From an uncultured Fibrobacteraceae bacterium (GTDB lineage: Bacteria; Krumholzibacteriota; Krumholzibacteriia; LZORAL124-64-63), in the NCBI GenBank assembly GCA_964476155.1, contig CAYYYS010000012.1, positions 6,475-70,474 of the forward strand: a stretch of DNA of 64,000 nucleotides, given 5' to 3'. The notes beneath the pieces were generated by a model, which had not been told where the DNA came from, did no database searches, and was given only the letters and a program-made list of their open reading frames with translations. Numbering within the stretch: position 1 is the stretch's first letter; each line of letters opens with the position of its first letter. Both the position numbers and the translations under genes were made by a program. Of this stretch, positions 5,329-35,969 are shown one piece after another.

Positions 5329-5377
5329 TGCCGACTCCTCTCGGTAATGGGTTGGTATTACACGATGAATCGAGGAG

Positions 5378-5806: not shown

Positions 5807-5850
5807 GCGATTCCCTGCGTTATATGAAGTCGCTCCCGGGTTGAGACATA

Positions 5851-5859: not shown

Positions 5860-5929
5860 CACCACAGGTATATAGGTTCCCGAGAATCCAGGGCTCAGAT
5901 CGACACCTTCAACGCCGATTGAAACGCAA

Positions 5930-6160: not shown

Positions 6161-6244
6161 ATGAGCCGACTCTGATAACCTGGACACGTTACTCGACAGT
6201 CTTATTTGACGCGTATATTACACCGTGTGAATCTCGGCCGCGAT

Positions 6245-6655
6245 CTACTCCACAACATATTCGTGCGAAATCTCCGCCGTCTTTTCCAGCATCCGCCCCA
6301 CCGAACAAAACGTCTCCGCCGACAGCTTGATCGCCCGCGCCAGCTTCTTCTCCGGCACTTCGCCGGTCACCAGGTACTTCAGTCGAATGGCCGTGAATAC
6401 CTTGGGGTGATTTTCCGCCCGCTCGAACTCGATCTCCACCCGCAAGGACTCGGCCGGACAGCGCATCTTCTCCAGGATCGCCACCACGTCCACGCAGGAA
6501 CACGCCGCCAGGGAATGCAGCACGGCTTCTATCGGAGTCGGCGCGGTGCCCTCTCCTCCCTGTTTGACGGGAATGTCGAATTTCGATTCCAGCCCCGTGG
6601 GCGTGATCCCGGTAAACCTGCGATTCCCATCCCAGGTCACCATATGTTTGCTCAT
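6245..6655 (-). CDS. osmC: OsmC/Ohr family peroxiredoxin-like protein
   Basis: RBS AAGGAG 7 nt before ATG at 6655. MSKHMVTWDGNRRFTGITPTG...GGEGTAPTPIEAVLHSLAACSCVDVV...AIRLKYLVTGEVPEKKL is typical of OsmC. Confidence 0.85.
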   Translation of the reverse strand: MSKHMVTWDGNRRFTGITPTGLESKFDIPVKQGGEGTAPTPIEAVLHSLAACSCVDVVAILEKMRCPAESLRVEIEFERAENHPKVFTAIRLKYLVTGEVPEKKLARAIKLSAETFCSVGRMLEKTAEISHEYVVE

Positions 6656-6665
6656 CGATGTCTCC

Positions 6666-7553
6666 TTATTTGTGCACGCGATCACGGATGCGACCCCGCA
6701 CGCGGGGCAGGTCCTCGTAATGATCCATCCGCCGCATCAGCGCGTTGATCTCGGCGCCCAGCAGGAAGATGAACCCCGACAGCCACAGCCAGACCATCAT
6801 GATGATGACCGCGGCGATCGATCCGTAGGTCACGTTGTAGGCGCTGAAGTTGCGCAAGAAGAGGCGGAACAGGGACGAGACGACGAACCAGCCGACCGTG
6901 GCGAAGACCGTTCCCGGCAGGATCCACACGTAGCGCTGTTTCGCTTCGGAGGCGAAGTGGTAGAGGATCGACACGGCGCCCAGGTTCAGCAGCAGGACCA
7001 GGGGCAGGCGCAGGGTCGTCCAGAAATTGTGGCTGTCGCCGGCAAGGCCGAGGAACTGGAAAAACTTGTGGGACAGACCCGGGCCGAGCAGCACCAGCAG
7101 GGTCGACAGGATAACGAAGCAGCTCAGCACCAGGGTCAACAGGATGGAGATCAGTTTCTGATAGGCGATGTTGCGCTTGGGATGAATATTGTAGACGCGG
7201 TTGATCGTTGTGATCAGCACGCCCACCCCCATCGACCCCGACCACAGCGCGGCCAGCAGACCGAACCCGAGAATGCTGCCCTCACGCTCGCTCAACACGG
7301 TGCGAACGGTACCCGAGACCAGGTCGAAGGCGGGCGGCGGCAGGGCTTCCTGCAGGCTGTTCAAGACCTGGTCGGGCTCGAGAATGGGCAGAAAGCTGAT
7401 CAGGCTCAGGATGAACAGCAGGAACGGGAAGATGGCGAGCATCACGAAGTACGCGATCTGCGCGGCCATGCCCATGCAGTCGTCGTAGCCGATCTCGCGT
7501 TGGAGGCGGCGCAGGAACAGGCCCGCCCTGGTTAGTCTTCTCTGGTAGTCCAT
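6666..7553 (-). CDS. yihY: YihY/BrkB (virulence factor BrkB) family inner-membrane protein
   Basis: 295 aa with multiple TM helices and the YihY signature region ...AAQIAYFVMLAIFPFLLFILSL...GSIAAVIIMMVWLWLSGFIFLLGAEINA. Same strand as the OsmC gene, 11 nt upstream. Confidence 0.85.
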   Translation of the reverse strand: MDYQRRLTRAGLFLRRLQREIGYDDCMGMAAQIAYFVMLAIFPFLLFILSLISFLPILEPDQVLNSLQEALPPPAFDLVSGTVRTVLSEREGSILGFGLLAALWSGSMGVGVLITTINRVYNIHPKRNIAYQKLISILLTLVLSCFVILSTLLVLLGPGLSHKFFQFLGLAGDSHNFWTTLRLPLVLLLNLGAVSILYHFASEAKQRYVWILPGTVFATVGWFVVSSLFRLFLRNFSAYNVTYGSIAAVIIMMVWLWLSGFIFLLGAEINALMRRMDHYEDLPRVRGRIRDRVHK

Positions 7554-7789
7554 GGTGGAATAGAATGAGGGGTTGTTGGGGAAAAATCAATGGTGGGCCG
7601 AGGTGAGGTGTGGGGGGCGCTCGCCGAGACGGTCGCTACGCCTCGGCAAGCGCCCCTCACACCACACCTCTCCGCATCGATAATTCCCAACAATCCCGTA
7701 TTCTATTCCGTATGGGTGGAGCTTGCCCAAGATCCACTTGCGTGGCAGAATGGCGCGACTGTTCCCTACGACCCTACCTGGAGGCTTTC

Positions 7790-10464: not shown

Positions 10465-11181
10465 ATGAAGCTGAACCGGTTATTGACCATTCTGCTCATG
10501 ATGATCCTCGTCACCACCGCCCATGGCGGTATACATAGGGGATCATCCGCTTCCATGCGCCTGGACGCCGAGCCGCCCCAGATCGGGATCGTCACCGCGC
10601 CCGAGGGCGAAACCTTCATCGCCGGCGACACGCTGCACTTCGCCTGGTGGGCGAGCGACAGCTACCCCGCGCTCCACGATTCGAACCGGGTAGCCGCCGT
10701 GCTGGTGCGCGAAGCGCTTCAGGATTCCACTACCTACACCGTCACCCTCGACCACACGTGGGACTGGATCGCCCCGGAGGTGAGTTCCGCCAATTGCGTT
10801 TTTGAAGTGACCGTGCGCGACGAGTTCGGCAACACCGCCACCACACGCAGCGACGTCTTCCGCCTCCTGCGCTCCGACACCGCGGCTCCCGATACACCCG
10901 CGACGATACGTTTGGCCGCACCCGCACCCAACCCATTCAATCCGCAGACGACTATCACCTTCGCGCTGCCCGAATCGGGACCGGTCGACCTGTCGGTCTA
11001 CGATCTGCACGGTCGGCTGGTGCGCCGTCTGCATCAGGGCGCGCTGCCCGCCGGCTCCCACACCCGCACCTGGAACGGCCGCGACGACGACGGACGCCGC
11101 GTCGCCGGTGGTCCGTACATGGTTCGCCTATTGGCCGGCGGCGGCTTCAACGAGGCCCGAAAAGTGGTGTTGTTACCATGA
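10465..11181 (+). CDS. Secreted hypothetical protein with C-terminal T9SS/FlgD-Ig-like sorting domain
   Basis: Signal peptide MKLNRLLTILLMMILVTTAHG. CTD ...APAPNPFNPQTTITFALPESGPVDLSVYDLHGRLVRRL...GPYMVRLLAGGGFNEARKVVLLP. Confidence 0.75.
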   Translation: MKLNRLLTILLMMILVTTAHGGIHRGSSASMRLDAEPPQIGIVTAPEGETFIAGDTLHFAWWASDSYPALHDSNRVAAVLVREALQDSTTYTVTLDHTWDWIAPEVSSANCVFEVTVRDEFGNTATTRSDVFRLLRSDTAAPDTPATIRLAAPAPNPFNPQTTITFALPESGPVDLSVYDLHGRLVRRLHQGALPAGSHTRTWNGRDDDGRRVAGGPYMVRLLAGGGFNEARKVVLLP

Positions 11182-12680: not shown

Positions 12681-13412
12681 CTATAGACCTTCACCACCGT
12701 CGATATTGATCGTCTGCCCCGTGACCGCCGGACAGCCCAGCAGGAACTGCAGGGCGTCGGCCGCGTCTGCGGGCGTGGGAAAGCGGTCGAGCGGAAGCTC
12801 GGCACGCGCGACGTGCTCGTAACCCTCGGGCGGCACGACCGGCGGCAACACCGCGCCCAGGGCGATCTCGTTGACGCGGATCCGCGGCGCCAGGGCGGTG
12901 GCCAGGTTGCCGGTCAGCACGTGTAGCGAGGCCTTGCTGTGCGTGTAGGCGAAGTAGTCGGCGCGCGGGTTCAGGGCATGAATGTCGTTGAGGTTGATGA
13001 TGTCACCCTCCCGATCGGCGGGCAATGCGGCGGCGAACACCCGGCTCAGCAGCAGCGGCGCGCGCAGGTTGATCCGCTGCATACGGCTCCATGACTGGAG
13101 ATCGAGGTCGGCAAAGCCGCCCTGTTCGAAGATGGACGCGTTGTTCACCAGGATGTCCAGGTGACCAAAGGCCTCGACGGTCTCGGCGATGGCCCGGTCG
13201 GCCGTCTCCGCCTCGATCAGGTCGCCGGTCACCAGGGCCGCACGCACGCCGAGCGCCGCGATCTCGCGGGCGGTCTCGTCGGCCGCGCCGCTCTCGTCAC
13301 GCGACAGGATGGCCACATCGGCGCCCAGTTGCGCCAGTCGCAACGACAGGGTTTTTCCCACCCTCACGCCGCCGCCGGTTACCAGGGCTGTGCGTCCCTT
13401 CAAATCGTTCAT
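12681..13412 (-). CDS. SDR family NAD(P)-dependent oxidoreductase
   Basis: MNDLKGRTALVTGGGVRVGK (TGxxxGxG Rossmann motif), the NNAS segment and the YTHSK active-site motif. The internal Met at 13412 is preferred over the longer track ORF. Confidence 0.85.
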   Translation of the reverse strand: MNDLKGRTALVTGGGVRVGKTLSLRLAQLGADVAILSRDESGAADETAREIAALGVRAALVTGDLIEAETADRAIAETVEAFGHLDILVNNASIFEQGGFADLDLQSWSRMQRINLRAPLLLSRVFAAALPADREGDIINLNDIHALNPRADYFAYTHSKASLHVLTGNLATALAPRIRVNEIALGAVLPPVVPPEGYEHVARAELPLDRFPTPADAADALQFLLGCPAVTGQTINIDGGEGL

Positions 13413-13792
13413 CGCTTGCCTTTCTGCAGCACGATCACCAACGCGCCCTCGCCGCCCCAATCGCGCGGGGCCGGGCGCCAGCTCGCGATCGCTTCGGGAT
13501 GCTCTTTGATCCAGCGTCGGGTCAAGTCGCCGAGAATCGGTCCATGCTCGGAGCCCATCCCCTTGCCGTGGACGATCAGCAGTTCGCGCGTGCCTTGGCG
13601 ACGATGCGCCTCGACCTCACGCGCCAACAGCGCCAGCGCCTCGTCGGCACGTAACCGACGCAGGTGCACGCTCGCCGGCGGTTCGCCCGACGGATAGCCG
13701 CGCTGCGCTTCGTCCGACTCGTGTCGGATCGAGCGGCCCATGCCCTTGGTACGGCCGGTCTTGCCGGGTCGTCTATTCTTGAACCGTCCCAC
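13409..13792 (-). CDS. Smr domain protein (MutS2-C-terminal-like small nuclease domain), first of two tandem paralogs
   Basis: ...LRADEALALLAREVEAHRRQGTRELLIVHGKGMGSEHGP... Smr signature. The start is uncertain (13792 or 13741). Confidence 0.65.
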   Translation of the reverse strand: MGRFKNRRPGKTGRTKGMGRSIRHESDEAQRGYPSGEPPASVHLRRLRADEALALLAREVEAHRRQGTRELLIVHGKGMGSEHGPILGDLTRRWIKEHPEAIASWRPAPRDWGGEGALVIVLQKGKR

Positions 13793-18574: not shown

Positions 18575-19090
18575 ATGGCTATCGAGCGTCCCGATCCGGC
18601 GACCTACGCCCGGTATTTCCAGCAGTATGTCGACCAGGTGCCCGAAGGGGATCTGCTGTTCACGCTCACCAGCCAGGTCGAAGCCACCTGCGCCCTGGTC
18701 GCGGGGTTCGGCGAGGAGGGGGCGCTGCATCGCTATGCCGAGGGCAAGTGGAGCGTGAAGGAAGTAGTCGGGCACGTGATCGACATGGAGCGGCTCTTCG
18801 GGTACCGCGCCCTGAGCTATGCGCGAGGAGATACGACGCCCCTGCCAAACGTCGAAGAGGACGAGTGGGCCGCCGCGTCCAACGCGAACACTCTCTCCCT
18901 GGCCGACCTGTTGGACGAACTGCTGTCGGTGCGTCGCGCCACGGTTGCTTTCTTCGCCAACCTGGACGCGGCGGCCTTGTCGCGGAATGGGATCGCCGGG
19001 GAGAACAAGTTGACCGTGGCCTGCATGGCCTGGGTTTTGGCGGGGCATGAGATTCATCATGGGGGGGTTGTTCGGGAGCGGTATAAATAG
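18575..19090 (+). CDS. DinB/YfiT-like (DinB_2) metal-dependent hydrolase superfamily protein
   Basis: 171 aa with conserved His residues (HVIDMER ... GHEIHHGG) in the characteristic four-helix-bundle spacing. Confidence 0.75.
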   Translation: MAIERPDPATYARYFQQYVDQVPEGDLLFTLTSQVEATCALVAGFGEEGALHRYAEGKWSVKEVVGHVIDMERLFGYRALSYARGDTTPLPNVEEDEWAAASNANTLSLADLLDELLSVRRATVAFFANLDAAALSRNGIAGENKLTVACMAWVLAGHEIHHGGVVRERYK

Positions 19091-19351
19091 CGTTGGGCAC
19101 ATGAAGAAAAGAACCACAAGGTTGAATCTGGTAGCTGTAAACTGGTGTATATTTTGAGGCCGCGTTTGGAGATGTCGGTGGTCATATGTCTTCCCGCCAC
19201 CTGTCTCCCTCCTTGGATTTCAGGCTGGATCCTTGGCTAAGTGTGAATTGTCGATCCCGGCGTATCCAAGACATAACATGTTGGTATATACCACATTGCC
19301 TCGTTTACCACCAAGCTTCAAGGCCTCAACGACCTAGTTGTCTTGGATAAA

Positions 19352-21018
19352 TCATATCCCGTCGGGAAGATCCCACTCCGGAACTGATCGTGATCCCCTG
19401 TTCTTGAGTAGACCGTCACGGCGAAGTGCCTGTAACAGGTTCTTCACCTTGTACTTCTTCTGCTCCATCGTGAGATGATCGGGCAGTTTCGACAACAAAG
19501 CATCATCGACATCGCGTCGGCCGACTGGCCCATGCTCCCTCACCAACTCCATGATCACGTCCAAGTAGTACTGCCGATCAAAACCTCGTTCACGAATATG
19601 CCGGCCCGCACCACCAGCCGCCTTGGCCACTTCCGCCGCTACAAAGAGGTTTGGGTACCGCCCCTCCACCAACCCCGCTTTCTTTAGCTTTCGATGCTCG
19701 TCCTTGGAAACCCGCACCTTCTTCTGCACCCTGTCCAAGAGCATGACATCAGCCAGATCTAGATCTGTTTGGGCCATCAGGAGCCGGCAGTACTTTTCGT
19801 CGAGGATCTCTCCCCGAATAGTCACAGACACTCTGTCTGCCACCGAGAGGTCATAGTCGGGTAGCGGAAAAACCGCTCCCTCTGGTGGACATACATCTTC
19901 CTGATGCCACCACCCTGAGTGTCGATCATGTTGAGGTTCACCATGGCCTCGGCCAGGAATGGATTCCGATAGGTTTCCTGGGGCGCATCCTGGCGAATAA
20001 CTGACTCCACATCCCCCGGCAGGAAGTCGCCAGCGTTTCTGAACAATACGCGATCGGGCGTTTCCGCGATGTTGATCCGCCCCCTCAGGCCATAATCCTG
20101 ATGCGCGATACAGTTATGCAACGCCTCGCGCAAAACCCATGGCTCGTACTGGGTGAACTCCCTTGGAAACAAAGTGCCGCTGGGTAGCGCCCGCAACGTC
20201 AGGTTCCGAATCTTCCCGGTAACACGGTCGACCTGTAATAGGAACGGCGGGAAGAAGTGCTCGTAGTCGAGATCCAGGTTCTTGCCATCCCTTAGAGTCC
20301 AAGTAATCTTCGCCACGGCCGGAGACAACAGCGTCGAAGATTCGTTCTTGCCGAGCAGAAGCATGGCTGTGTTCGTCACCCGACCGTTAATCGTGAGCTT
20401 GGATTTGTTCAGGAAGACTTCGTCGTCCCAACCGTCGATGTCCTCGCTCTGAGTCGGGTGCTTGATCCTGAACTGCTCACGAGCCTCGGCGATTGCGCTT
20501 GAGTCGAGATGTTCGAGATCAGCTTGCTCGCAGATGTCAGCTGACCAGTCATGGCCACTCGTCAGGATGGCTCTGAGGACTTCGGGGTGGTTGCGCAGGT
20601 TCGTTTTGCAGGAGCCTATGCGGGCGAAGGCCTCACTCTTGAAGTAGACGGGGCGACCTTGCGCTGCTCGGACGGTGAATACGACAACTCGGCCGTCAGG
20701 GTGATCCACGATTTCGACGTTGAAGCCTGGATTCGGATCGAGGCTCGTATTCAACCAGATCAGGAGGTCTTGATTGCCCACGGCCTTGACATTGTAGGGA
20801 TCGAAAACCGAGCCCACAACTTCGTGTGTTCCGTCGTGGATTCCGAAAACGAGGTAACCTTGGGGTTTGCACTTCCACGCGGCTGTGTTAGAGAGCGCAG
20901 ACAGATATTCGCCCAGCTCTTGGGGCTGATATCGGTTCGCCTTGAACTCGAACCATTCGCGCTCGGCGGGCTCAGCACGGAGGCGATCGATGAGGTCGAT
21001 GAGTTGCTGATGGGTCAT
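19352..21018 (-). pseudogene. AlbA_2 (Schlafen-like) + HATPase_c_4 'divergent AAA/RecG-C-terminal' putative transcriptional regulator, split by a 1-nt frameshift
   Basis: ORF 19822..21018 (398 aa; ...HNCIAHQDY...GGGIRKM...) and ORF 19352..19843 (163 aa; winged-helix C-terminus) overlap by 22 nt. The -1 frame gives a seamless ...QRERFFPLPDYDLSVADRVSVTIRGEIL... junction at a T5/A5 run (19868..19872). Sum is about 560 aa, the family's normal length. Confidence 0.7.
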
Positions 21019-21067
21019 GGTCGCCTCCTTTTCCGACTTTGTTTCAGTGTCGCAGATATTCTGATCA

Positions 21068-23116
21068 TCAACGAACCAAAACCGCCTTCATGGTATCGGA
21101 CACTCCCCGATTTCCCCTCACCCGCACGAAATACACACCTGACGGCACATCGCGCCCACGCGCACCTCGTCCATCCCACTTTACCGTGTGAATTCCCGGC
21201 TCGACCAATCCAAGCAAGACGGTCTTGATGAGCCGGCCGGCGACATCGTGGATCTCGAGGATCATCTTATCGGGAACCTGGCTTGTGAAGGCGATTTCGA
21301 TCGACGGGTTAAAGGGGTTGGGAGCCAGGGAATTGATCTCGTGTAGACGAGGGGATGAGATCGCGTGGGGCTCCGGGTCGTTGACTGCGGTCAAAGGGTC
21401 GCGGGTTAGGCCGAGGTTGAGATCAAAACCGGCTTCGACGGATATGAAATGCCAGTTCGCGGGCGGGGACGTATTAACCGCCATGTACATATCTCCCCCC
21501 CAGGCCAATCCTGTGCCGTCGCTCTTGACGGCCAGACTGTGACTCAGCCCCGCTGAGATCGCCACGAAATCGGTATTGGGCTCAGGCACGTCACATTGTC
21601 CAAAATCGTTCCACCCCCAGGCCTCTATCGAGCCGTCCGATCGCAGCGCCAGACTGTGCCCCCCTGCTGCAATTGCCATGTAGCCGGAATTGGGTAAGGG
21701 CACTTCGGCTTGACTATTTTCATGACCCCAAGCCGTGATCGATCCATCGGATTTTAGAGCCATGGCAGTCCCACAGCTTATCGAAATAGCAACAAAATCG
21801 GCATTCGGATCGGGAAGCTCCGACAACGAATGGTTTCCCGGCCCCCATGTCACGATCGTCCCGTCGGATTTCAATCCCACGCTCCAGAAACACGAAGCCT
21901 CAACTGCCACAAAACCCGCATTGGGTTCGGGAATCGTGCCCAAATCTGCGCCTTCTTCCCCCCATGTCACGACCGACCCGTCGGATTTCAGCGCGATGGT
22001 ATGCTCCTCACCCTCGGCGATGGACACGAAGTCGGCGTTCGGCTCTGGGATTTCACACCGGTTGAAATCGCACTCCTCCCCCCAGGACAGGATCGTGCCA
22101 TCAGACTTGAGAACGAAGTAGCGATAGAATCCCGCAGCGATCTCGACGATGTCAGTACTGAGCGGGGGTGCGAGATGCTGACAATTCCATGATTCCCCTC
22201 CCCACCCCATCACGGCGCCGTCGGATTTGATCCCGGCACTGTTCTGGTAACCGGCTGCGATCGTTACAAAATCCGCGTTCGGCTCGGGGACATCACACTG
22301 GCCGAAGTCGTTGCTCCCCCAGACCACGATCGTGCCATCGGACTTGAGTCCCATGCTGTGAAAGGTATACGCGGCGATCTTCACGAAATCCGTGTTCGGT
22401 TCGGGGATGTCACACTGGCCGTATCCATTCCACCCCCAGGCTACGATCGTGCCGTCGGACTTCAGACCGAGGCTATGGGCGCCACCCGAGGCGATGGCGA
22501 TGAAATCAATATTGGGCTCGGGGACATCACCTTGGCCGTATCCATTCCATCCCCAGGTCACGATCGAGCCGTCGGGCCTCAGACCCAGGTTGGAGGAACC
22601 GCAGGCCGAGAAAGCCGTGAAGCCCAAGTTCGGTTCGGGAATGTCGAGTCGCCCATATGTGCTATCGCCCCAGGCGACGATCGAACCGTCTGTTTTGAGC
22701 GCAAGAATGTGTTTGTAGCCGGCGTCGATATCGACGAAGCCGGTGTTCGGTTCGGGAACATCACTCACGTCGATGACTATGCTGTTGGTCCAGACCTCGA
22801 TCGAACCGTTCGTTTTCAAGCCGGCGCTGAAACGTTGACCCGCCGCGACTGCCGAATAACCAACGGCCGGGATCGGCAGATCGCACTGGACATCAGAGTT
22901 CGCGCCCCAGGCCACGATCGAACCATCGGAATTCAAGGCGATGGAGTGACCCTCGCCCATATCGATGTCGACGGGATGGGTGAAGAGTGTGGCATCCGCG
23001 ATGATGAAACGCGGCCATGCCACAAGGGAGCCGTTCTCCTGACCGAGAGCAAGGTTACCGACGATAAAAAACAGGCACAGAGTCAGTGAAGATATAGACA
23101 ATACGGATCGCCTCAT
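21068..23116 (-). CDS. Secreted RCC1 (regulator of chromosome condensation)-repeat beta-propeller protein with C-terminal T9SS/FlgD-Ig-like sorting domain
   Basis: Signal peptide MRRSVLSISSLTLCLFFIVGNLALG. About 10 repeats of ...SDGSIVAWGWNGYGQCDIPEPN.... CTD ...LAPNPFNPSIEIAFTS...IHDVAGRLIKTV...GVYFVRVRGNRG...KAVLVR. Confidence 0.85.
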   Translation of the reverse strand: MRRSVLSISSLTLCLFFIVGNLALGQENGSLVAWPRFIIADATLFTHPVDIDMGEGHSIALNSDGSIVAWGANSDVQCDLPIPAVGYSAVAAGQRFSAGLKTNGSIEVWTNSIVIDVSDVPEPNTGFVDIDAGYKHILALKTDGSIVAWGDSTYGRLDIPEPNLGFTAFSACGSSNLGLRPDGSIVTWGWNGYGQGDVPEPNIDFIAIASGGAHSLGLKSDGTIVAWGWNGYGQCDIPEPNTDFVKIAAYTFHSMGLKSDGTIVVWGSNDFGQCDVPEPNADFVTIAAGYQNSAGIKSDGAVMGWGGESWNCQHLAPPLSTDIVEIAAGFYRYFVLKSDGTILSWGEECDFNRCEIPEPNADFVSIAEGEEHTIALKSDGSVVTWGEEGADLGTIPEPNAGFVAVEASCFWSVGLKSDGTIVTWGPGNHSLSELPDPNADFVAISISCGTAMALKSDGSITAWGHENSQAEVPLPNSGYMAIAAGGHSLALRSDGSIEAWGWNDFGQCDVPEPNTDFVAISAGLSHSLAVKSDGTGLAWGGDMYMAVNTSPPANWHFISVEAGFDLNLGLTRDPLTAVNDPEPHAISSPRLHEINSLAPNPFNPSIEIAFTSQVPDKMILEIHDVAGRLIKTVLLGLVEPGIHTVKWDGRGARGRDVPSGVYFVRVRGNRGVSDTMKAVLVR

Positions 23117-23198
23117 GGAACTCCCTTTCCGTGGCGGTAATATTGCATCGATTTATATGAGATTACATTATCTGCCCTTTCCGTGAAATGGCCTAATA

Positions 23199-23228
23199 CA
23201 AAAACCCCACCTCCAAAGAGGCGGGGCA
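23199..23228 (-). terminator. Rho-independent terminator downstream of the lipoprotein gene 23250..24539
   Basis: Minus-strand hairpin ccccgcctc-tttg-gaggtgggg followed by TTTTT (plus 23200-23204 aaaaa). Confidence 0.55.
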
Positions 23229-23249
23229 CTTTACACGTGTAAAACCGAA

Positions 23250-24539
23250 CTAATCCCGCGGCTTGTCCGGCGGAAAAATCCCGAACCCCACCTGCGTCAT
23301 CGTCCCATCGAACCCGATCAGGTTCAGCATCAGCACCCCTGGTCCATAGAGGCGCATGTACTCACCCCACAGCGGCATCAGATCGAAGACGAATTCGTCC
23401 TCGAACCATGCGTCGCAATCCTCCTCGACCTCGTGCACCAGCACCACATTGATCTGCGGCGGATCTGATTCCATGAATCCGCCGCTCGCATAGAGCGTGA
23501 ACGGCTGGTCCGGCTGGCAGCCCGAGAATCCAACGTGCATCCTCAGATGATGCTCGCCCTCGATCTCGGCGCCGATCAGCACCCAATGGCCGAAGTGCAG
23601 TTCTTCCGGCGGCAAGGGAGTGAACAGGATTTCCGTGTTCTGGGGAGGCCCGGCAGAGCACAGACCGAAGTGGGCCTCGTCGAAACCGTGGGGCAAACCG
23701 TCGGGACCCGGCGTCAACAACACGTCCAGGGGGTTGGGCGTGGTGAAACAGGGGTCCAGGGGCGGCATCCAGGCCCGGTTGCACTGAAGCCGATAGAGAC
23801 CGGCGGTCTCGACCGGCAGGGCCCAATGGCCGTCGGGATCAGTAGCGAGATGGACGACATCGCCGTCGGGTAGCGAGACCGCGATGAAGGCGGGGCCCAT
23901 GGGCGGTTCGGTCGGTTCAGGCCAACCGTTATTGTTCTCGTCCACGAAACAACGGCCGGCGATGCGCGGCCGGTCGGGCTCGGTGCCGAACTCGGCCCAG
24001 CCTTGGAAGGAGAATGACCCCAGGCCGGGATCATGGAAGATCCAGGTCTTGGCGGTCGACGTCTCCCCGTACTCCAGGATGTCGTCGTCGCCCATCAGGT
24101 CCGAGTAGTCGAAACCGAAACGCACGAAGTGGACGAAGGTGTCCTGCTTCCCTTCGGCGGGCGGAACGATGGCATAATCCGCGTTGATCAGACTCACGGT
24201 TTCCGGTACGAAGCGCTCCACCCAGACCACGGCCGGTGCGTATAGCGGATAGGGATGCTGGCTGCGGATGGCCACATCCAGGCTGACCTGCTCGTTGGTC
24301 GGGTCGGCAACCAGGTTGGAGCCGATCAACTCTATCACGGCGGCAGGGCCATCCCAGGGCGGCGGCATCTGCAAGGTTTTCAGGACAAAAGTGCCGTCGG
24401 CGGGATCCATGTCGCCCTCTGCGCCGACGCGCGCCAGGGTGCCATCGTCACCGGACGGAGCTGTGGAGTCGGAACAGCCGGATAGCGCTAAAATCGACAG
24501 CAGCCCCAGAAGGAGCAGGGCGCGAAAAGGTCGCAACAT
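23250..24539 (-). CDS. Hypothetical lipoprotein
   Basis: Lipobox MLRPFRALLLLGLLSILALSGC. 429 aa with no recognisable domain. Co-directional with, and 128 nt downstream of, the PorV-like OMP gene. Confidence 0.75.
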   Translation of the reverse strand: MLRPFRALLLLGLLSILALSGCSDSTAPSGDDGTLARVGAEGDMDPADGTFVLKTLQMPPPWDGPAAVIELIGSNLVADPTNEQVSLDVAIRSQHPYPLYAPAVVWVERFVPETVSLINADYAIVPPAEGKQDTFVHFVRFGFDYSDLMGDDDILEYGETSTAKTWIFHDPGLGSFSFQGWAEFGTEPDRPRIAGRCFVDENNNGWPEPTEPPMGPAFIAVSLPDGDVVHLATDPDGHWALPVETAGLYRLQCNRAWMPPLDPCFTTPNPLDVLLTPGPDGLPHGFDEAHFGLCSAGPPQNTEILFTPLPPEELHFGHWVLIGAEIEGEHHLRMHVGFSGCQPDQPFTLYASGGFMESDPPQINVVLVHEVEEDCDAWFEDEFVFDLMPLWGEYMRLYGPGVLMLNLIGFDGTMTQVGFGIFPPDKPRD

Positions 24540-24666
24540 CGCATGACCTCCGAAGGAGATGTGGGGTACATATGGGCGGGGTGGCGACGACCGGCCCTTA
24601 AAAAGAGCCTAGCCCACACAGAATATCACAGGCAGGGCGGGAATACCACCGAGCCGGAAGCCGGAA

Positions 24667-25749
24667 TCAGAAATCGAGCGAGACTGCAGCACTGTAACGA
24701 TCGAGGCGTTTCTTGACGATCGGGTCACTGCTCTTCAGATCTGGGTCGTACGGTACGCTGGCCCAGTCGGCGCGGACCCCGAAGCGGCCAATCTGTGGGA
24801 AAAGCCGCAAACCGGCTCCATATGTGATGCCATTCTTGACATGGCCTTCGCCCCAATCAACCTGGCCGACCCGACCCGAAACCAGACCGAACATCGTCAA
24901 TTCGGCGCCGTAGCGATTCACGGTCGAGTTTGACCATTCGTTGTCGAGGCGACCCTTTTCCCGGTCGGCGGTGATCAGCCAGCGCAGGCGATGGCCCTGG
25001 CCGTGGTGCCACCCGTGTCGACCTTCCAGCGCGAACCCGGCGCGACCGCGTTGCATAAGGGTGAGGGGGGCGGATTTGGTTTCGATCACCGTCCAGTCGA
25101 TTTCGACCTCGGCCCGATCGGTATTGGTCAGGACACCACCCAGTCGCCAGCCGACCCAACCCCGATGAACGTCGTCGGAGTCGCCCAGGAAGAAACGAGT
25201 GCCGAACATGAAGCCCGCATCCTTGTCAGAGGCTTTGGCAAAGGTCTCGTTTTCCCAGCTGGATTCGAGGGTCTTGAAATTGACGCCCAAGCTGGCGAAG
25301 AGCGTGGTCTCGTCGCCGAAGATCAGCCGCCCCAGATCGATGGCCAGCCCCACGGCGCGTGCGTGAATTCTGAAATCTTCCAATGTGCCCTGATCGAAAG
25401 TGTCGGTCGTAGTATCCCAGGCCAATTCGTTCTGATAAGCCCCAAGACGCAGATAGCCGATTTCAACCGCGGCGCCAAGTGCCGAGAATTTCAGATCATC
25501 GATGAACTGGTCGGCTTGATGGTACCCCACGGCCACCGTATGGCCCTCGAGCTGGGTTGCCGGATTCCAGAAGAGACCCGCCGGGCCTTCCGCCACGGCG
25601 GTGAACGCCATGCCCATCCCCTCGCTGCGGGCATCGGGCGCATAGGCCTGTCCGGTGAATGAGTCCGAGTAGATACGCTCGTACTCGTCCGCACAAGCCG
25701 CGGACACAAGCACCATGGCCATCAAGATCAGAACAACACTCGATTTCAT
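24667..25749 (-). CDS. Outer-membrane beta-barrel protein, PorV/PorQ (LptO)-like T9SS-associated family
   Basis: RBS GGAGAGG before ATG at 25749. Signal peptide MKSSVVLILMAMVLVSAACA. N-terminal ...GMGMAFTAVAEGPAGLFWNPA... resembles the PorV/FadL-like signature. C-terminal ...AAVSLDF ends in Phe, as for OMPs. Confidence 0.6.
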   Translation of the reverse strand: MKSSVVLILMAMVLVSAACADEYERIYSDSFTGQAYAPDARSEGMGMAFTAVAEGPAGLFWNPATQLEGHTVAVGYHQADQFIDDLKFSALGAAVEIGYLRLGAYQNELAWDTTTDTFDQGTLEDFRIHARAVGLAIDLGRLIFGDETTLFASLGVNFKTLESSWENETFAKASDKDAGFMFGTRFFLGDSDDVHRGWVGWRLGGVLTNTDRAEVEIDWTVIETKSAPLTLMQRGRAGFALEGRHGWHHGQGHRLRWLITADREKGRLDNEWSNSTVNRYGAELTMFGLVSGRVGQVDWGEGHVKNGITYGAGLRLFPQIGRFGVRADWASVPYDPDLKSSDPIVKKRLDRYSAAVSLDF

Positions 25750-25926
25750 CGACCTCTCCTGACGATTCATCCAACCATGCGTCGGAAATTCTAATCACTG
25801 GACGGCCGGGGATCAAGTCGGTCCGACCGAGTGCCGAGTAATATGGATGTCTCAGGGGAGTGGGACCTGTATACTCCGGCCCGGTCGACTAATTCCGAAC
25901 GTCACAAGACAAGGGACAGAACCCAC

Positions 25927-26685
25927 ATGACCGACGACATCAAGAAGAAGGAAGCCGAGTACTTCGACGACTACACCGAGTCCCTCGTCCGCGCCCCGCT
26001 GTGGAAATACTATGCCATCAGCCGCCGCAGCAAGGACGACTACCGCCACGCCGAGTTCTCGCGCTGTCCCGGCGCCGAGGTGCTCGACTACGGCTGTGGC
26101 GCGGGCCATCACTCCCTGGAACTGGTCGAGGCGGGGGCTGCGAAAGTGGTCGGTATCGACATCTCGCCGCGGTCTATCGACGTGGCCCGCGAAGGCGCCG
26201 CCAAGGCGGGCGCCGACAACACCGAGTTCCACGCCATGGACGCCGAATCGATGGACTTTCCCGATGACAGCTTCGACCTGATCACCGGCCTGGCCATCCT
26301 CCACCATCTCGATCTCGACGTGGCCGGCCGCGAACTGGCGTGCGTGCTCAAGCCCGGCGGCACGGCCGTCTTCTCCGAACCCCTGGGCCACAACCCGGCG
26401 CTCAACCTCTTTCGCAAAGTCACTCCGTCCATGCGTACCGACGACGAGCATCCCCTGGTGCGCGGCGACGTGAAGATCCTCGAGCGCCATTTCGACCAGG
26501 TCGTGACCCGTTGCTTCCACATGTCCACGCTGCTGGCGGTGCCGGTCTGCAAGTGGCCGCGGATCGCCGAGCCGGTCATCACCATGCTGGACGGACTCGA
26601 CCGCGCCCTCTTCGCGGTGGTCCCGCCCCTGCGCTGGTGGGGTTGGTACGCGACGCTCGAATTCTCCAAACCGCACAAAGCTTGA
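25927..26685 (+). CDS. Class I SAM-dependent methyltransferase (Methyltransf_11/25)
   Basis: VLDYGCGAGHHS (motif I), ...DLITG... and LKPGGTAVFSEP motifs. The internal Met at 25927 is preferred. The upstream 32 aa of the track ORF cannot be excluded. Confidence 0.75.
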   Translation: MTDDIKKKEAEYFDDYTESLVRAPLWKYYAISRRSKDDYRHAEFSRCPGAEVLDYGCGAGHHSLELVEAGAAKVVGIDISPRSIDVAREGAAKAGADNTEFHAMDAESMDFPDDSFDLITGLAILHHLDLDVAGRELACVLKPGGTAVFSEPLGHNPALNLFRKVTPSMRTDDEHPLVRGDVKILERHFDQVVTRCFHMSTLLAVPVCKWPRIAEPVITMLDGLDRALFAVVPPLRWWGWYATLEFSKPHKA

Positions 26686-29840: not shown

Positions 29841-32273
29841 ATGCGTACTATGCTTATTGCCGCCGTCGTCCTGCTGGTCGCCGTGTCCGCCGCGGCCATC
29901 CCCATCTCCGACCTGCACGTCAACTACGCCAACGGCACGCCGACCCTGCTGGGTCAGACGGTCACGGTGAGCGGCGTGGTCACGGTACCCACGTACCTGC
30001 TCAACGGCTATACGCTCGAGGTGTTCGTGCAGGACGACACGGGCGGCATCAACGTCTACGTGACCGGCGGCGCGTCGAGCTGGAACCTGGCCCTGGGCGA
30101 CAGCGTGACCGTCACCTCACGTGTGGCCCAGTACAACGGGCTGACCGAGCTGGGCACGGCCACCAGCTACACGACCATCACGAATCACGGCCCGGCTTCG
30201 GCCATACCCGAGCCACAGGCCATGAGCTGCACCAGCGTGAACGACGCCTTCCTGGCCAACAACCGCGACCCGGACGAGAGCCGGCTCGTGCGCCTGGACA
30301 ACCTGAACATCACCAGCGGCGCGTGGCCGGTGACCGCCGGCGGCAACACGGTACTCACGGTCAACGACGGCGGCGGGTCCTGTCTGCTGTACATCGACCA
30401 GGACACGGACCTGAACGGCAGTCCCGATCCCGGCGCCAACTTCTCGGTGATCGGCGTGATCAAGCAGTACGACTACTCGAGTCCCTACACGACGGGGTAT
30501 GAGGTCATGCCGCGCTACCTGAGCGACGTGTTCCCCACGAGCTCGGGTCCCGTGGTGACCGGCGACGTTACCGTGATGAACATCACGTCCACCGGGGCCG
30601 GCGTCCTCTTCTTCACCCAGGGCGACGGCAGCACCGAGGTGGAATACGGCCTGACGCCGAGCTACGGTCAGACCGCCGGCTTTCCCGACGTTCGTGTCAC
30701 CGCCCACGTGGTCACGCTGACCGACCTGGTGCCCAACTCGGTCTACTACTTCCGCGCCAAATCCACCAACGACTACGGCACCTCTTACGGACCCGACCAG
30801 GTCTTCGTGACCCCGAGCGAAATCCCCGGCGAGATCCACGTCTACATGAAAGGCTCGGCCGATCACGACTATTCCCTCGACGGCCTCACATTCGTGAACG
30901 ACAACGAATCCCTGTCGGGACGCCTGATCGACCTGATCGGCGACGCCGAAGCCTCGGTGGACGCCTGTCTCTACAGCTTCAGCCTGGACAGCGTGCGCGA
31001 CGCCCTGATCGCCGCCCACAACCGCGGTTGCCAGGTGCGCTTGATCATCGACCAGGACAACTCGCACGCCGACGCCGATGTCTGCCAGGCGGCGGGCATC
31101 CCCTACATCGACAGCGGCTTCGGGGGCAACCACGCCAGCGGCGCCATGCACAACAAGTTCGTGGTGATCGACGGACGCGACGTGGACAAGTACAACGACT
31201 GGACCTGGACCGGCAGCGCCAACATGAGCATCTCGGGCGACAACGACCTGAACAACGCCCTGGCCATTCGCGACTTCGGCCTGGCCCAGGCCTACACCCT
31301 GGAGTTCAACGAGATGTGGGGCAGCGACACCCAAACCGCCAACGGAACCCTGGCCCGCATGGGCGACGCCAAGCTGGACAACACGCCGCACGTGTTCACC
31401 ATCAACGGTCTCGACGTCGAACAGTACATGAGTCCCAGCGACGAGGTGACCGACCGCGTGATCGAGGCCATCGGCACCGCCGAGCAGAACATCTACTTCG
31501 CCATGCTGGCGTTCACCCACAACGACATTTCCGACGCCATGCGCGACCAACGCGACGCGGTGCCGACCCTGGGCCTGGCCGGTGTCTTCGAACAGGATCA
31601 GAGCGATTGCACCAGCGGCGGCGAGTACTGGCGCATGCATGGCGACGCCTGCGCGCCCGACCCCTGGTCGCCGGCGGCCGATGTGTGGCTGGACACCGCT
31701 CTGCCGGGCAGCGTCCTGCTGCACCACAAGTACCTGCTGATCGACGCGCCCGGCGATCCCCAGACCAGTCTGCCGAAAAGCGGCGGAGCCTTCGACGCGA
31801 TGGTCTTCACCGGCAGCCACAACTGGAGCTACAGCGCCGAATCGATCAACGACGAGAACACCCTGGTGATCCACGACTATGTAATCGCCAACCTGTTCCT
31901 GCAGGAGTTCGCGGCGCGTTACGCCGAGTCCGGCGGGTCCGAGCACCTGGGCTGGGCCACCGGTGTGGAGGACGGCCCCGACGCGGCGCCCCGACTGCTC
32001 GCCGGCCTGCGCGCCTGGCCGAATCCCTTCAATCCCCAGGTGAGTTTCTCGTTCATGACCGGCACGACGGCCCGGGTCGACGTGAGCGTGCACGACGCGC
32101 GGGGGCGGCTTGTGCGCTCGCTATACGGCGGGAAGGACCTGGCGGCTGGACTGCATGTGCTGGGGTGGGATGGACGCACCACTGACGGGCGGGCGGCCGC
32201 GAGCGGCGCCTATTTCCTGCGCGTGAGTGGCGGCGGGGAAACGATCACCGAACGGGTGACGTTGGTTCGCTGA
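29841..32273 (+). CDS. Secreted phospholipase-D superfamily enzyme (two HKD motifs) with FN3-like domain and C-terminal T9SS/FlgD-Ig-like sorting domain
   Basis: Signal peptide MRTMLIAAVVLLVAVSAAA at an internal ATG. HKD motifs AMHNKFVVIDG and LLHHKYLLIDAP. FN3-like ...VYYFRAKSTNDYG.... CTD AWPNPFNPQVSFSF...VSVHDARGRLVRSL...GAYFLRVSGGGETITERVTLVR. The in-frame upstream 146 codons (29403..29840) look like a decayed leader ORF. Confidence 0.85.
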   Translation: MRTMLIAAVVLLVAVSAAAIPISDLHVNYANGTPTLLGQTVTVSGVVTVPTYLLNGYTLEVFVQDDTGGINVYVTGGASSWNLALGDSVTVTSRVAQYNGLTELGTATSYTTITNHGPASAIPEPQAMSCTSVNDAFLANNRDPDESRLVRLDNLNITSGAWPVTAGGNTVLTVNDGGGSCLLYIDQDTDLNGSPDPGANFSVIGVIKQYDYSSPYTTGYEVMPRYLSDVFPTSSGPVVTGDVTVMNITSTGAGVLFFTQGDGSTEVEYGLTPSYGQTAGFPDVRVTAHVVTLTDLVPNSVYYFRAKSTNDYGTSYGPDQVFVTPSEIPGEIHVYMKGSADHDYSLDGLTFVNDNESLSGRLIDLIGDAEASVDACLYSFSLDSVRDALIAAHNRGCQVRLIIDQDNSHADADVCQAAGIPYIDSGFGGNHASGAMHNKFVVIDGRDVDKYNDWTWTGSANMSISGDNDLNNALAIRDFGLAQAYTLEFNEMWGSDTQTANGTLARMGDAKLDNTPHVFTINGLDVEQYMSPSDEVTDRVIEAIGTAEQNIYFAMLAFTHNDISDAMRDQRDAVPTLGLAGVFEQDQSDCTSGGEYWRMHGDACAPDPWSPAADVWLDTALPGSVLLHHKYLLIDAPGDPQTSLPKSGGAFDAMVFTGSHNWSYSAESINDENTLVIHDYVIANLFLQEFAARYAESGGSEHLGWATGVEDGPDAAPRLLAGLRAWPNPFNPQVSFSFMTGTTARVDVSVHDARGRLVRSLYGGKDLAAGLHVLGWDGRTTDGRAAASGAYFLRVSGGGETITERVTLVR

Positions 32274-33812: not shown

Positions 33813-35969
33813 ATGACACACGATCGCCCCACACACAGCGCGCTTGCCGCCGGCCTGTTGTTCGTATGGATGCTGATACCTTGCGTCGTGTTTGGCGTGT
33901 CCAACGGCGAGGTGCCGATCGACTCGTGGATGCTGGAGGGCAAGGGCATCCCCTGTCGCGGTCACGCCAAGGGCCTGGGACCGAACAAGGCCCCCGAAAA
34001 CCATCCGTCCCAGGACCTGATCGATGTCCTGCACTACGCGAATTATTTCATGCTGAATTTCGCCACCCAGGACATCCAGGGCGCACAGCTGATCACCTTC
34101 TCTCCTCTGCAGGGGGCCGTGACCGAGCTGGTCCTGGATTTCGTTGACGAGATGTCTTTTACGTCGGCGGCCCTGAACTCCTCCAATTACGCGCCTCTCC
34201 CTTTCGTTCACGCCAACGACCGCGTGACGATCTCACTGCCCTTTGAGGGCCAGGCCACCACCGATACGATCACGGTCATACTGACCTTCGAGGGCGCGCC
34301 GCAGCCTGACGGAATCTACGGTTTCCGGTTCGTCGAGCGCGAAGACGGTAAACTGGTGGCGGCCAACGTCAGCGAGCCCTGGAGCGCGCGTTCATGGTGG
34401 CCCTGCAAGGACGACCCGCGCGACAAGGCCACGTTCGGCACATCCCTCTATTCGCCCGCCGGCGTGACCGGTGTCTCGAACGGAGTAGAGCTTTCCTCGG
34501 GGCCCGTAAACCCGTACCTGGACGATGACGAGAAAACACGTCTCGAAGATCACCTGGCGGTTCTGCTCGGCGACAAGACCGAGTATGTGGCCGCGTACTG
34601 GCAGGAAACACATCCCATCTCCACGTATCATTTTTCGGTGGCGGCCTCCGAGTACACGCGCCTGGACGACATCTACATCGACGCCCAGGGCGACACGTTG
34701 CAGATCACCAATTACATCTATCCCGATCTGGTCCCCCAGGCCGAGATCGACTTCGCGCCGCTGTCGGACATGCTCGCCTGGTGCGAGGACACGTTCGGGG
34801 CCTACCCCTTCCCTGGCGAGAAATACGGTCATGCCCTCTTCGAGTGGGACGGCGCCATGGAGCATCCCACCGTCGCCACTTATTCGTCCCACTTTGTGAC
34901 CGGCGACAACAATTTCGACTCGATTGTCATGCACGAACTGGCCCATCAGTGGTTCGGCAATCTCGTCACCTGCGCCGACTGGTCCCATACCTGGCTGAAC
35001 GAGGGGTTCGCCACCTACGCCGAAGGTCTCTGGCGCGAGCACTCCGTGGGCGGGAGTTCGCTGAAATGGTTCATGTACCAGCGCAGCATTTTCACCTGGT
35101 GGGGGGGGGCCCTGGTCCGCGACATCCGCAATGACGACCCCTGGTACTTCTTCGCCAACATGGTCTACTACAAGGGTGCCTGGCTGCTGCACATGCTGCG
35201 TCGCGAGATCGGCGACACGGATTTTTTCGAGATTCTCAGACTCTATCCCCACGCGCGCGGCATGTCCTACGGTACCGCGACGACCGACGAATTCGTGCGC
35301 TTCTGCGAGGTATACCTGCGACGCAGCATGTCGACGTTCTTCAACCAGTGGCTCTACCGCGAAACCTATCCCGAACTGAACGTGCAATGGATGAATACCG
35401 GAACCGGGGGCGCTTCGAGCATATGGCTCGACATCAACCAGATCCAGCCCACCGACCCCTATGCCGGTGACGAACCTTTCCTTTTCAAGATCGACGTCCG
35501 CCTGGAAACCGCCGGCGGCAACGTCACCCACGTCGTCGAAGTGGACCGCCGCCACATGTTCGTGACGCTGGACGCACCGGCCAACGTGGACAACGTGGTC
35601 CTCGACCCCGACGGCTGGATGCTCTTCACTGCGGACGTGACCACGGCGGTGGATCCCCTCGCTTCCACCACCCGCGTATTGCGCCTGCGCAAGCCGGAGC
35701 CCAACCCCTTCACCGGACGCGGCATCATCGCCTGGACGACGCCCTTGTCCGGCGGCGACGAGCTGGCCGTCTACGACACGCGCGGCCGGCGCCTGCGCGA
35801 CTGGAAACTCTCCCCCGCCGAACCCGGACAGCGCAGCATCGCCTGGGACGGTCGCGACCGTAACGGTCGTCGCGTGTCGGCGGGCACCTATGTCTACACC
35901 GTCATCTCCCGCCCCACCGACGGCGGCGCGCCCCTGCGCGAAACCGGCAAGATCACACTCGCGCGCTGA
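33813..35969 (+). CDS. Secreted M1 family aminopeptidase (aminopeptidase N-like) with C-terminal T9SS/FlgD-Ig-like sorting domain
   Basis: Signal anchor MTHDRPTHSALAAGLLFVWMLIPCVVFG. GAMEH exopeptidase motif, HEXXH zincin motif VMHELAHQWFGN and the downstream LNEGFATY Glu. CTD ...PEPNPFTGRGIIAWTT...ELAVYDTRGRRLRDW...GTYVYTVISRP...GKITLAR. Confidence 0.9.
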   Translation: MTHDRPTHSALAAGLLFVWMLIPCVVFGVSNGEVPIDSWMLEGKGIPCRGHAKGLGPNKAPENHPSQDLIDVLHYANYFMLNFATQDIQGAQLITFSPLQGAVTELVLDFVDEMSFTSAALNSSNYAPLPFVHANDRVTISLPFEGQATTDTITVILTFEGAPQPDGIYGFRFVEREDGKLVAANVSEPWSARSWWPCKDDPRDKATFGTSLYSPAGVTGVSNGVELSSGPVNPYLDDDEKTRLEDHLAVLLGDKTEYVAAYWQETHPISTYHFSVAASEYTRLDDIYIDAQGDTLQITNYIYPDLVPQAEIDFAPLSDMLAWCEDTFGAYPFPGEKYGHALFEWDGAMEHPTVATYSSHFVTGDNNFDSIVMHELAHQWFGNLVTCADWSHTWLNEGFATYAEGLWREHSVGGSSLKWFMYQRSIFTWWGGALVRDIRNDDPWYFFANMVYYKGAWLLHMLRREIGDTDFFEILRLYPHARGMSYGTATTDEFVRFCEVYLRRSMSTFFNQWLYRETYPELNVQWMNTGTGGASSIWLDINQIQPTDPYAGDEPFLFKIDVRLETAGGNVTHVVEVDRRHMFVTLDAPANVDNVVLDPDGWMLFTADVTTAVDPLASTTRVLRLRKPEPNPFTGRGIIAWTTPLSGGDELAVYDTRGRRLRDWKLSPAEPGQRSIAWDGRDRNGRRVSAGTYVYTVISRPTDGGAPLRETGKITLAR

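Follow-up and report, generated by a model that had tools for sequence, protein, structure and literature searches.

A probable foreign islet of 4.1 kb carrying a split AlbA_2/HATPase_c_4 gene and an intact RCC1-repeat gene in an uncultured bacterium

The low-GC stretch described here occupies 4.1 kb of a 64-kb window (the whole stretch of DNA analyzed, 64,000 nucleotides of contig CAYYYS010000012.1 from an uncultured Fibrobacteraceae bacterium), and hosts a split gene for an AlbA_2/HATPase_c_4 protein next to an intact gene for a putatively secreted RCC1-repeat protein. It resembles genomic islets, small acquired insertions devoid of mobility genes, in its atypical GC and GC3 (GC content at third codon positions), absence from close relatives at the syntenic site, location in the intergenic gap between convergent genes, accessory cargo, and decay of one of the genes. 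Classical genomic islands feature tRNA genes, integrases or direct repeats, whereas the stretch is without these, and measures 4.1 kb only.

Described counterparts of the AlbA_2 gene match it in part. PrrC, an anticodon nuclease embedded among the hsd genes of the prr locus, is an accessory gene product nested in a type I restriction-modification (R-M) system. Close homologues of the window gene are similarly embedded, with hsdS before and hsdR after them, and their starts often overlap the stop codon of the preceding gene. PrrC, however, has no sequence relationship to the AlbA_2/HATPase_c_4 subfamily, and the window copy keeps only 30 nt of hsd genes. TrlG of Photorhabdus laumondii, made up of AlbA_2 and HATPase_c_4, is encoded by a temperature restriction locus and limits growth at 36 °C (bioRxiv 10.1101/2020.06.02.129163; PMC7554251). 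Point mutations, stop codons and a 3'-end IS66 insertion in trlG relieve the restriction, and the patchy distribution of TrlG has been ascribed to individual acquisitions (bioRxiv 10.1101/2020.06.02.129163). TrlG and the window protein feature the same two Pfam domains in the same order, being likened by domains and not by direct sequence similarity, and the readily selected loss-of-function mutations of trlG find a parallel in the frameshift of the window gene. TrlG differs in residing in a three-gene operon, trlR-trlF-trlG, and not in an hsd operon, and the subfamily of the window protein in having a long C-terminal tail. In Schlafen, SAMD9/9L and bacterial Avs9 proteins, AlbA_2 acts as the nuclease effector domain, and the toxicity of Avs9 depends on it (PMC12680541).

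With a probability of roughly 0.85, positions 19094-23197 are a foreign islet, a composite of an hsd-derived piece with the AlbA_2 gene and an intact RCC1 gene. The insertion and its surroundings are as follows.

19094-23197, no strand assigned: lineage-specific insertion of 4,104 bp (blastn against locus L087, absence in other relatives, lowest GC)
18575-19090, plus strand: dinB_2, host gene on the left flank (PF12867, 79 bits; orthologues in L087-L091, L007 and L021)
23204-23227, minus strand: ancestral hairpin terminator, host sequence common to the convergent dinB_2 and lipoprotein genes (terminator scan)
23250-24539, minus strand: host gene on the right flank, for a 429-aa lipoprotein-like protein (orthologues 58-88% identical in L087-L093)

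Distant relatives of the locus were sought by scanning species-representative genomes with the neighboring Gate-domain protein, the best matches being 70-77% identical and placing the organism among Krumholzibacteriia/Latescibacterota metagenome-assembled genomes, closer ones (L087-L091) by a metagenome scan with the lipoprotein. The closest relative is L087, in which amino acid identity reaches 95.6% for the Gate protein, 98.4% for superoxide dismutase (SOD) and 87.5% for the lipoprotein, and nucleotide identity 86-91%; the Gate protein is 88-91% identical in L088/L089, L090 and L091. In L087-L091 genes are ordered as in the window (SOD, methyltransferase, outer membrane protein (OMP), lipoprotein, then dinB_2 and/or the Gate-domain gene), without the island genes. 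Lipoprotein orthologues in L087-L093 each adjoin dinB_2 or the Gate-domain gene; it is the latter in L090, where dinB_2 gave no qualifying match. In L007 and L021 dinB_2 is followed directly by the OMP and lipoprotein genes, and neither an AlbA_2 nor an RCC1 gene is found there. Both island genes are missing at the site in all seven related loci (L087, L088/L089, L090, L091, L007, L021; ~70-96% Gate identity).

Blastn alignments place the edges of the insertion. Window positions 18933-19093 correspond to L087rc 2309-2469 and positions 23198-26103 to L087rc 2481-5385, L087 having ~10 bp (GATCCGCTGA) where the window has 4,104 bp; the right boundary is certain to ~3 nt only. The insertion point lies 3 nt past the dinB_2 stop codon, immediately before the hairpin. 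The insertion would postdate the separation of this lineage from its closest sampled relative, and its landing site would have been a gap of ~10-25 nt, with the stop codon of dinB_2 on one side and, on the other, the hairpin terminator that served both dinB_2 and the convergent lipoprotein gene. The recent foreign acquisition proposed in a first-pass annotation of this DNA is borne out by the synteny check with relatives, which have dinB_2 directly beside the lipoprotein gene and lack both island genes; the same gene order with the same low GC, the pattern of an old region, was not encountered.

The same annotation had the segment end at a clean terminator. The hairpin at 23204-23227 is real, but the same CCCCGCCTC...GAGGCGGGG hairpin is found between dinB_2 and the lipoprotein gene in L087, L088, L090 and L091. 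Being kept in relatives devoid of the island, it is the ancestral dinB_2/lipoprotein terminator, host sequence and not part of the island. In the window the hairpin carries one substitution, CCCCACCTC for CCCCGCCTC, resulting in a G-U pair on the minus-strand (lipoprotein) transcript and in an A-C mismatch on the plus-strand (dinB_2) transcript. The change fits the loss of the plus-strand role of the hairpin, after the insertion moved dinB_2 4.1 kb off. No plus-strand terminator was detected after dinB_2.

The neighborhood formed by the Gate, dinB_2 and lipoprotein genes is a recurrent indel spot among relatives. Between the Gate-domain gene and dinB_2, L007 hosts a 649-aa PDC-S41 candidate defense gene (5640-7589; PADLOC E = 6e-125), L088 a rhodanese-like lipoprotein gene (~6240-7160), and L091 a gap of ~1 kb. 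The dinB_2 gene of L087 has an in-frame internal deletion of ~55 codons (L087rc ~2116-2466), and the one in L090, for which no qualifying protein match was obtained, is recognizable at both ends (L090rc ~3375-3430). The pair of genes at the right, encoding the 367-aa OMP (24667-25770) and the 429-aa lipoprotein-like product (23250-24539, no family match), is kept in all relatives examined, the order of the two being reversed in the distant L007 and L021.

Composition agrees with synteny. GC content is 62.9% in the whole window, and in 1-kb windows 53-59% at 19-23 kb and 64-69% directly upstream, the 5 kb to the left averaging 66%. It is 48% in the 19100-19399 interval, confirming the AT-rich junction noticed earlier at 19.1 kb, and 47% in the spacer at 19094-19351. 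The synteny-defined insertion (19094-23197, 4,104 bp) has a GC content of 55.97%. Windows of 4,104 bp outside it have a mean GC of 63.2% (standard deviation 2.2%) and a minimum of 57.9%, none being as low as the insertion. The lowest-GC window of this size in the 64 kb starts at 19101, in agreement with the boundary set by synteny, so that the low-GC island first called at 19-23 kb is indeed the lowest-GC 4.1 kb of the window. The two parts of the insertion are alike in GC (56% and 58%), and third-position GC is low in all three island open reading frames (ORFs): their GC3 values are 0.64, 0.71 and 0.67, while the 49 other ORFs of the window have a median of 0.82 (robust z -1.7 to -2.7).

The left part of the insertion is made up by the following elements.

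19094-19155, no strand assigned: 62 nt at the left edge, with no similarity to hsdR genes or relatives
19156-19185, minus strand: hsdR' remnant, first 10 codons, MTTDISKRGL (matches the 5' ends of hsdR genes located 3' of AlbA_2 homologues)
19352-19843, minus strand: C-terminal ORF of 163 aa, helical/winged-helix-like tail (aligns colinearly with residues 385-555 of homologues after frameshift repair)
19866-19872, minus strand: frameshift site, T5C2 run 1 nt shorter than in homologues (ERFF|PLPDYDL; three-frame translation and repair)
19822-21018, minus strand: N-terminal ORF of 398 aa, with SLFN_AlbA_2 at residues 19-139 and HATPase_c_4 at residues 314-390 (Pfam; full-length homologues 62-71% identical)

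The genomic context of eight AlbA_2 homologues (ten loci), six on long contigs, indicates where this part comes from. Five of the six (P0011, P0037, P0079, P0026, P0086) reside inside a type I R-M operon, before hsdR, the upstream neighbor being hsdS or a small ORF, with whose stop codon they often share a 4-nt overlap; the sixth, P0113, is an orphan. The R-M-embedded homologues are 62-66% identical to the repaired window protein (L099 5445-9868, L100 1-12171, L101 1-8671, L102 3622-9870, L103 1-9857), and genes of defense type are interleaved in some of these operons (KAP NTPase, QatB and TatD in L101, GmrSD_N in L103, ThsB_TIR, Nmad2, MazG_C and HMUDK_hel in L102). That the AlbA_2/HATPase_c_4 family is found in defense contexts, as stated in the first-pass annotation, thus holds true for five of six long-contig homologues. 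The two closest homologues (P0001 on L095/L096, P0007 on L097/L098) lie on shorter contigs; on L095, L097 and L098, decayed fragments of hsdR come after them.

No hsdM, hsdS or hsdR gene flanks the AlbA_2 gene in the window, where only a 30-nt remnant of the hsdR 5' end is found. In the homologue loci hsdR starts read MT(T/S)DT(T/S)ERGLERLIC (for example, MTSDTSERGL or MTTDTTERGL). The window remnant ATGACCACCGACATCTCCAAACGCGGCCTC (19185 down to 19156) encodes MTTDISKRGL on the same strand as the AlbA_2 gene, and is 88% identical over 34 nt to the hsdR start of L099, the similarity stopping after codon 10-11. The consensus pattern of hsdR starts has one match in the window, and none in 100 shuffles. 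The remnant is located 167 nt 3' of the AlbA_2 stop codon, a distance varying from 166 to 462 nt in L095, L097-L100, L102 and L103, and equal to 166 nt in L103. Because of this remnant, set at the expected distance and in the expected orientation, and of the hsd context of the homologues, the AlbA_2 piece appears to have been torn from an hsdS-AlbA_2-hsdR locus. One part of the islet would therefore be a fragment of a type I R-M operon: the gene encoding AlbA_2, HATPase_c_4 and the winged-helix tail, the spacer 3' of it, and hsdR as far as codon 10. A remnant of hsdS 5' of the AlbA_2 gene was looked for as well and ruled out, homology to the homologue loci beginning 1 nt before the ATG.

In PADLOC-DB v2 no system matches the window protein, weak partial-domain hits being limited to PDC-S50 (23 bits) and Aga SIR2-PNTD (22-25 bits). 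Plasmid and phage collections contain distant relatives only (≤45% identity on 57 plasmids, ≤37% on 7 phage or satellite records), so the close AlbA_2 subfamily is not typically plasmid- or phage-borne. Literature searches found no described link between the AlbA_2/HATPase_c_4 family and hsd operons.

The gene at 19352-21018 had been described as one for an AlbA_2/HATPase_c_4 regulator. Both domains are present in the 398-aa ORF, SLFN_AlbA_2 (PF04326) scoring 56.9 bits (gathering score 25.3) and HATPase_c_4 (PF13749) 38.9 bits (gathering score 26), and AAGGAGG is found 7 nt before the ATG. The gene is not a single intact one, being frameshifted by a 1-nt deletion in the T5C2 run in all the assemblies seen. 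The minus strand reads GAG CGG TTT TTC CGC TAC CCG (ERFFRYP), with a stop 13 codons past this heptapeptide, while the -1 frame reads PLPDYDLSVADRVSV. Addition of one C to the T5C2 run, making it T5C3, yields a 555-aa protein of ~62 kDa, which is 62-71% identical to homologues 555-566 aa long, the alignments covering 98-100% of its length. Full-length homologues come from many phyla, source names including Deferrisomatales, Thermoleophilia and Myxococcota, and the subfamily is highly conserved (mean column identity 73-76%). E19 and E21 are acidic residues that do not vary. In place of the uninterrupted frame of ~555-566 aa found in homologues, the window features ORFs of 398 and 163 aa; a weak AlkZ-like match is found in the latter. 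The same split occurs in six assemblies 99.96-100% identical to the window (gene calls of 398 and 157 aa), and a database of 5.8 billion proteins contains no intact near-identical copy. The 1-nt deletion parts the AlbA_2/HATPase_c_4 portion from the C-terminal tail, and in all likelihood the split gene has lost its activity and is in decay. Of the positions that do not vary across eleven homologues, 144 of 147 are kept before the frameshift and 53 of 56 after it; such good conservation past the lesion may mean either that the lesion is recent, or that the tail is still under selection. Inactivation may be favored, because proteins of this type limit growth, as TrlG does in Photorhabdus.

The right part of the insertion is made up by the RCC1 gene.

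21068-23116, minus strand: intact RCC1-repeat gene, 682 aa (Pfam, NCBIfam, 117-nt repeat period)
21071-21361, minus strand: FlgD_ig domain of the RCC1 gene, a putative type IX secretion system (T9SS) type A sorting domain (Pfam, NCBIfam)
23117-23197, minus strand: AT-rich (42% GC) region upstream of the RCC1 gene, inside the insertion, presumed to hold its own promoter and ribosome-binding site

The RCC1 assignment is supported by scores of 326.7 bits for PF25390 (gathering score 150) and 244.9 bits for PF13540 (gathering score 22); AlbA_2, HATPase_c_4 and RCC1 all stand as first annotated. The protein starts with an N-terminal signal peptide, as read from the sequence, and ends with a C-terminal domain (CTD) of 90 aa. 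The latter scores 40 bits as FlgD_ig PF13860 (cut-off 27), barely passes TIGR04183 (23.2, cut-off 23), and remains below the cut-off for PF18962 (18.7, cut-off 27). Blades of ~39 aa, corresponding to the 117-nt period, are 13 clear plus one degenerate (12-13 clear copies by repeat search), each carrying the motif K(S/T)DG(S/T)hhxWG, which suggests two seven-bladed propellers. The gene has a GGGAG ribosome-binding site and an 81-nt AT-rich upstream region, and is presumably transcribed on its own; being located downstream of the lipoprotein terminator, it would not be co-transcribed with the lipoprotein gene. A sigma-70 scan revealed no excess of sites over shuffles, and no consensus site upstream of either island gene.

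Proteins of the same architecture (signal peptide, ~39-aa RCC1_2 blades, FlgD_ig) are known from Krumholzibacteria, Eisenbacteria and allied uncultured phyla. None is more than 52% identical to the window protein, whose gene is lineage-specific at this site. These best database homologues (≤52% identity) vary in architecture and span many phyla. FlgD_ig is already present in many of them, the RCC1 plus FlgD_ig combination being a common, pre-existing one which occurs in Krumholzibacteria and Eisenbacteria. This bears on the origin of the CTD, which the first-pass annotation regarded as a host-type domain acquired by the RCC1 protein. The GC3 of the CTD matches that of the remainder of the gene (0.66 vs. 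0.68). Foreign RCC1-family proteins (P0227, P0135 and P0229, the last named Eisenbacteria) have CTDs 48-52% identical to this one; six host CTDs encoded in the window match it at only 34-41% identity, and one another at 29-49%. On both grounds, GC3 and similarity, grafting of the domain in the host is rejected, and the CTD came with the RCC1 gene.

At least six other window proteins carry a FlgD_ig CTD (3-197, 10894-11175, 31983-32270, 35664-35903, 43145-43393, 57280-57561), among them a PLD-like protein, an M1 peptidase and a lamin-tail-domain protein. The 367-aa OMP (24667-25770) has a PorV/PorQ-family match of 38.7 bits, below the cut-off of 90. The organism appears to make heavy use of CTD-dependent export, and the export pathway of the RCC1 donor was probably similar in kind to that of the recipient. 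The second part of the islet would be an intact gene for a secreted double RCC1 propeller, bringing its own ribosome-binding site, upstream region, signal peptide and CTD. Since at least six host proteins of the window end in a CTD of this kind, the imported protein could probably be exported and displayed without adaptation, and the RCC1 gene is the islet part most likely to be functional.

A profile of the AlbA_2/HATPase_c_4 family matches in the PDB the uncharacterized 583-aa protein 3lmm, over the HATPase_c_4 region (E = 1.9e-8), and weakly, in the AlbA_2 core, Schlafen N-terminal domains (5yd0 and 9nyy, E = 0.03 and 0.72). The likeness of both to the AlbA_2/HATPase_c_4 family is very remote, and sequence searches of the PDB returned nothing beyond 3lmm and the marginal Schlafen matches. 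An AlphaFold2 model based on a 32-sequence alignment has a mean predicted local distance difference test (pLDDT) of 59.8 and a predicted template modeling score (pTM) of 0.34, too poor for a fold search. TrlG, the AlbA_2 nuclease effectors and the profile matches all bear on what the protein would do, and our working inference is that it would serve type I R-M as a nucleic-acid-targeting or growth-arresting accessory, orphaned and inactivated in the window. A more specific proposal, offered as a tentative and rather speculative one, is that the subfamily, whose members share 62-75% identity even between distant phyla and usually lie between hsdS and hsdR, may be an uncharacterized accessory effector of type I R-M, acting like PrrC as a back-up when R-M is disabled, and that the window copy may have been silenced as harmful in the absence of hsd partners. 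The effector is perhaps a Schlafen-like nuclease or a growth arrester.

Several observations weigh against a composite foreign islet with an hsd-derived part. The hsdR remnant is only 30-34 nt long. The 64-kb window contains no tRNA gene; neither direct nor inverted repeats beyond chance flank the segment, which is devoid of terminal repeats; no target-site duplication is found at the junctions; and no integrase or transposase lies nearby, the neighboring genes being of housekeeping types. The search for an integrase or flanking direct repeats recommended along with the first annotation has given a negative answer inside the window. The many repeats reported by the repeat search are the 117-nt blade repeats inside the RCC1 gene, and an Rfam scan of the 18.5-23.5 kb interval, with E up to 1, returned no matches. 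The donor search named no donor: identity peaked at 71% for AlbA_2, with a homologue on a short contig, and did not exceed 52% for RCC1, whose best homologues come from many phyla. GC3 values similar to those of the island are found in other window genes, as in the gene for a 772-aa CTD protein at 57277-59595, so GC3 alone is a weak sign of foreignness. As tRNA genes, flanking repeats, integrases and transposases were not found, the insertion is regarded as an islet and not as a classical mobile island. It would be passive, without mobility machinery of its own, and may have entered most likely by illegitimate recombination of incoming DNA, or be the remainder of a larger element.

Whether the two parts arrived together is less clear, a single composite insertion being somewhat more likely than not. 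The possibility that the RCC1 gene and the AlbA_2/hsdR' fragment inserted independently at the same spot is a serious one, if distinctly the less probable. The two genes have no functional relation, and in none of the ten AlbA_2-homologue loci examined do they adjoin, which tells against their joint arrival; relatives, moreover, show repeated indels at and around the spot. Yet a single indel separates the window from L087, no intermediate state has been sampled, and the two parts are similar in both GC and GC3. Dinucleotide distances (AlbA_2 vs. host 108 ± 28, RCC1 vs. host 123 ± 32, host vs. host 87 ± 30, AlbA_2 vs. RCC1 99) are uninformative, signatures being too noisy at 2 kb to show a common donor.

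It is improbable that the RCC1 and AlbA_2 genes form a working defense or regulatory module, the AlbA_2 protein acting as two polypeptides or being restored by -1 frameshifting. The two genes are 49 nt apart on the same strand, both Pfam domains are kept in the 398-aa ORF, and conservation is equally good on either side of the frameshift. A -1 slip on GGTTTTTCC would yield the very ERFFPLPDYDL of the homologues, and low-level ribosomal slippage there, unlikely as it is, would restore the full-length protein and count against a decaying gene. The T-run, however, is not a canonical X XXY YYZ slippery heptamer, and none of the 120 listed homologues is split at this point, the window's own 398-aa ORF (P0002) excepted. 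AlbA_2 and RCC1 genes do not co-occur in the homologue loci examined, no PADLOC system matches, and 3'-end lesions abolish the function of TrlG.

Somewhat less probable still is that the island is ancestral to the group and was deleted in L087 and the other relatives. The neighborhood is indel-prone, as denoted by the ~55-codon deletion in the L087 dinB_2 and by the L090 dinB_2 lacking a qualifying match, and other genes were gained or lost between the Gate-domain gene and dinB_2. Several independent deletions would nonetheless be needed, in near and far lineages, each restoring the same spacing between stop codon and hairpin, and the foreign composition and the R-M-derived remnant would be left unexplained.

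An old native region, low in GC because of compositional constraint (a repeat-rich propeller gene, low expression), is very improbable. Other window genes are equally low in GC3, at 52.5-55.4 kb and at 57.3-61.5 kb, the latter including a FlgD_ig-CTD protein, and the RCC1 plus FlgD_ig architecture is present in Krumholzibacteria and Eisenbacteria; but the seven related loci without both genes, four of which have the same hairpin, contradict a native origin. Joining of DNA from a lower-GC organism into the contig by faulty assembly or binning, to which the metagenomic source and the sharp GC change at both edges might point, is practically negligible: the exact dinB_2 protein is found on 20 contigs, and the six fetched, from separate JGI and ENA assemblies, match the region at 99.96-100% identity, junctions included, which excludes an assembly chimera.

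Further observations concern the rest of the window. The other two stretches low in GC and GC3 (GC3 0.60-0.73) span 52500-55360, with genes for an extracytoplasmic function (ECF)-type sigma factor, a 252-aa ORF and a radical SAM protein, and 57277-61522, with the gene for the 772-aa FlgD_ig-CTD protein, two small ORFs and an HNH/DUF222 endonuclease gene. The related loci end short of both. At 13409-13792 and upstream, as in L001 at 4835-5501, two adjacent overlapping ORFs with Smr domains (~100-127 aa each) are found beside an SDR gene, and may represent either one split gene or two genes in tandem.

The low-GC stretch is a true and precisely bounded acquisition, not a constrained native region, and the islet is a case of ordinary gene acquisition and decay, with cargo of known families. 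The "regulator" it contains should carry a pseudogene annotation. The RCC1 gene illustrates that the import of a secreted protein can include a sorting domain already in use in the recipient, in which case no domain fusion is needed after transfer. The wider lead lies at the family level, in a highly conserved AlbA_2/HATPase_c_4 gene residing in type I R-M operons across phyla and absent from PADLOC-DB v2. The family is a candidate R-M accessory function, for the study of which intact loci are better suited than the broken orphan of the window. Should its members prove to be accessory effectors, the islet would be a snapshot of how such modules scatter and fall silent.

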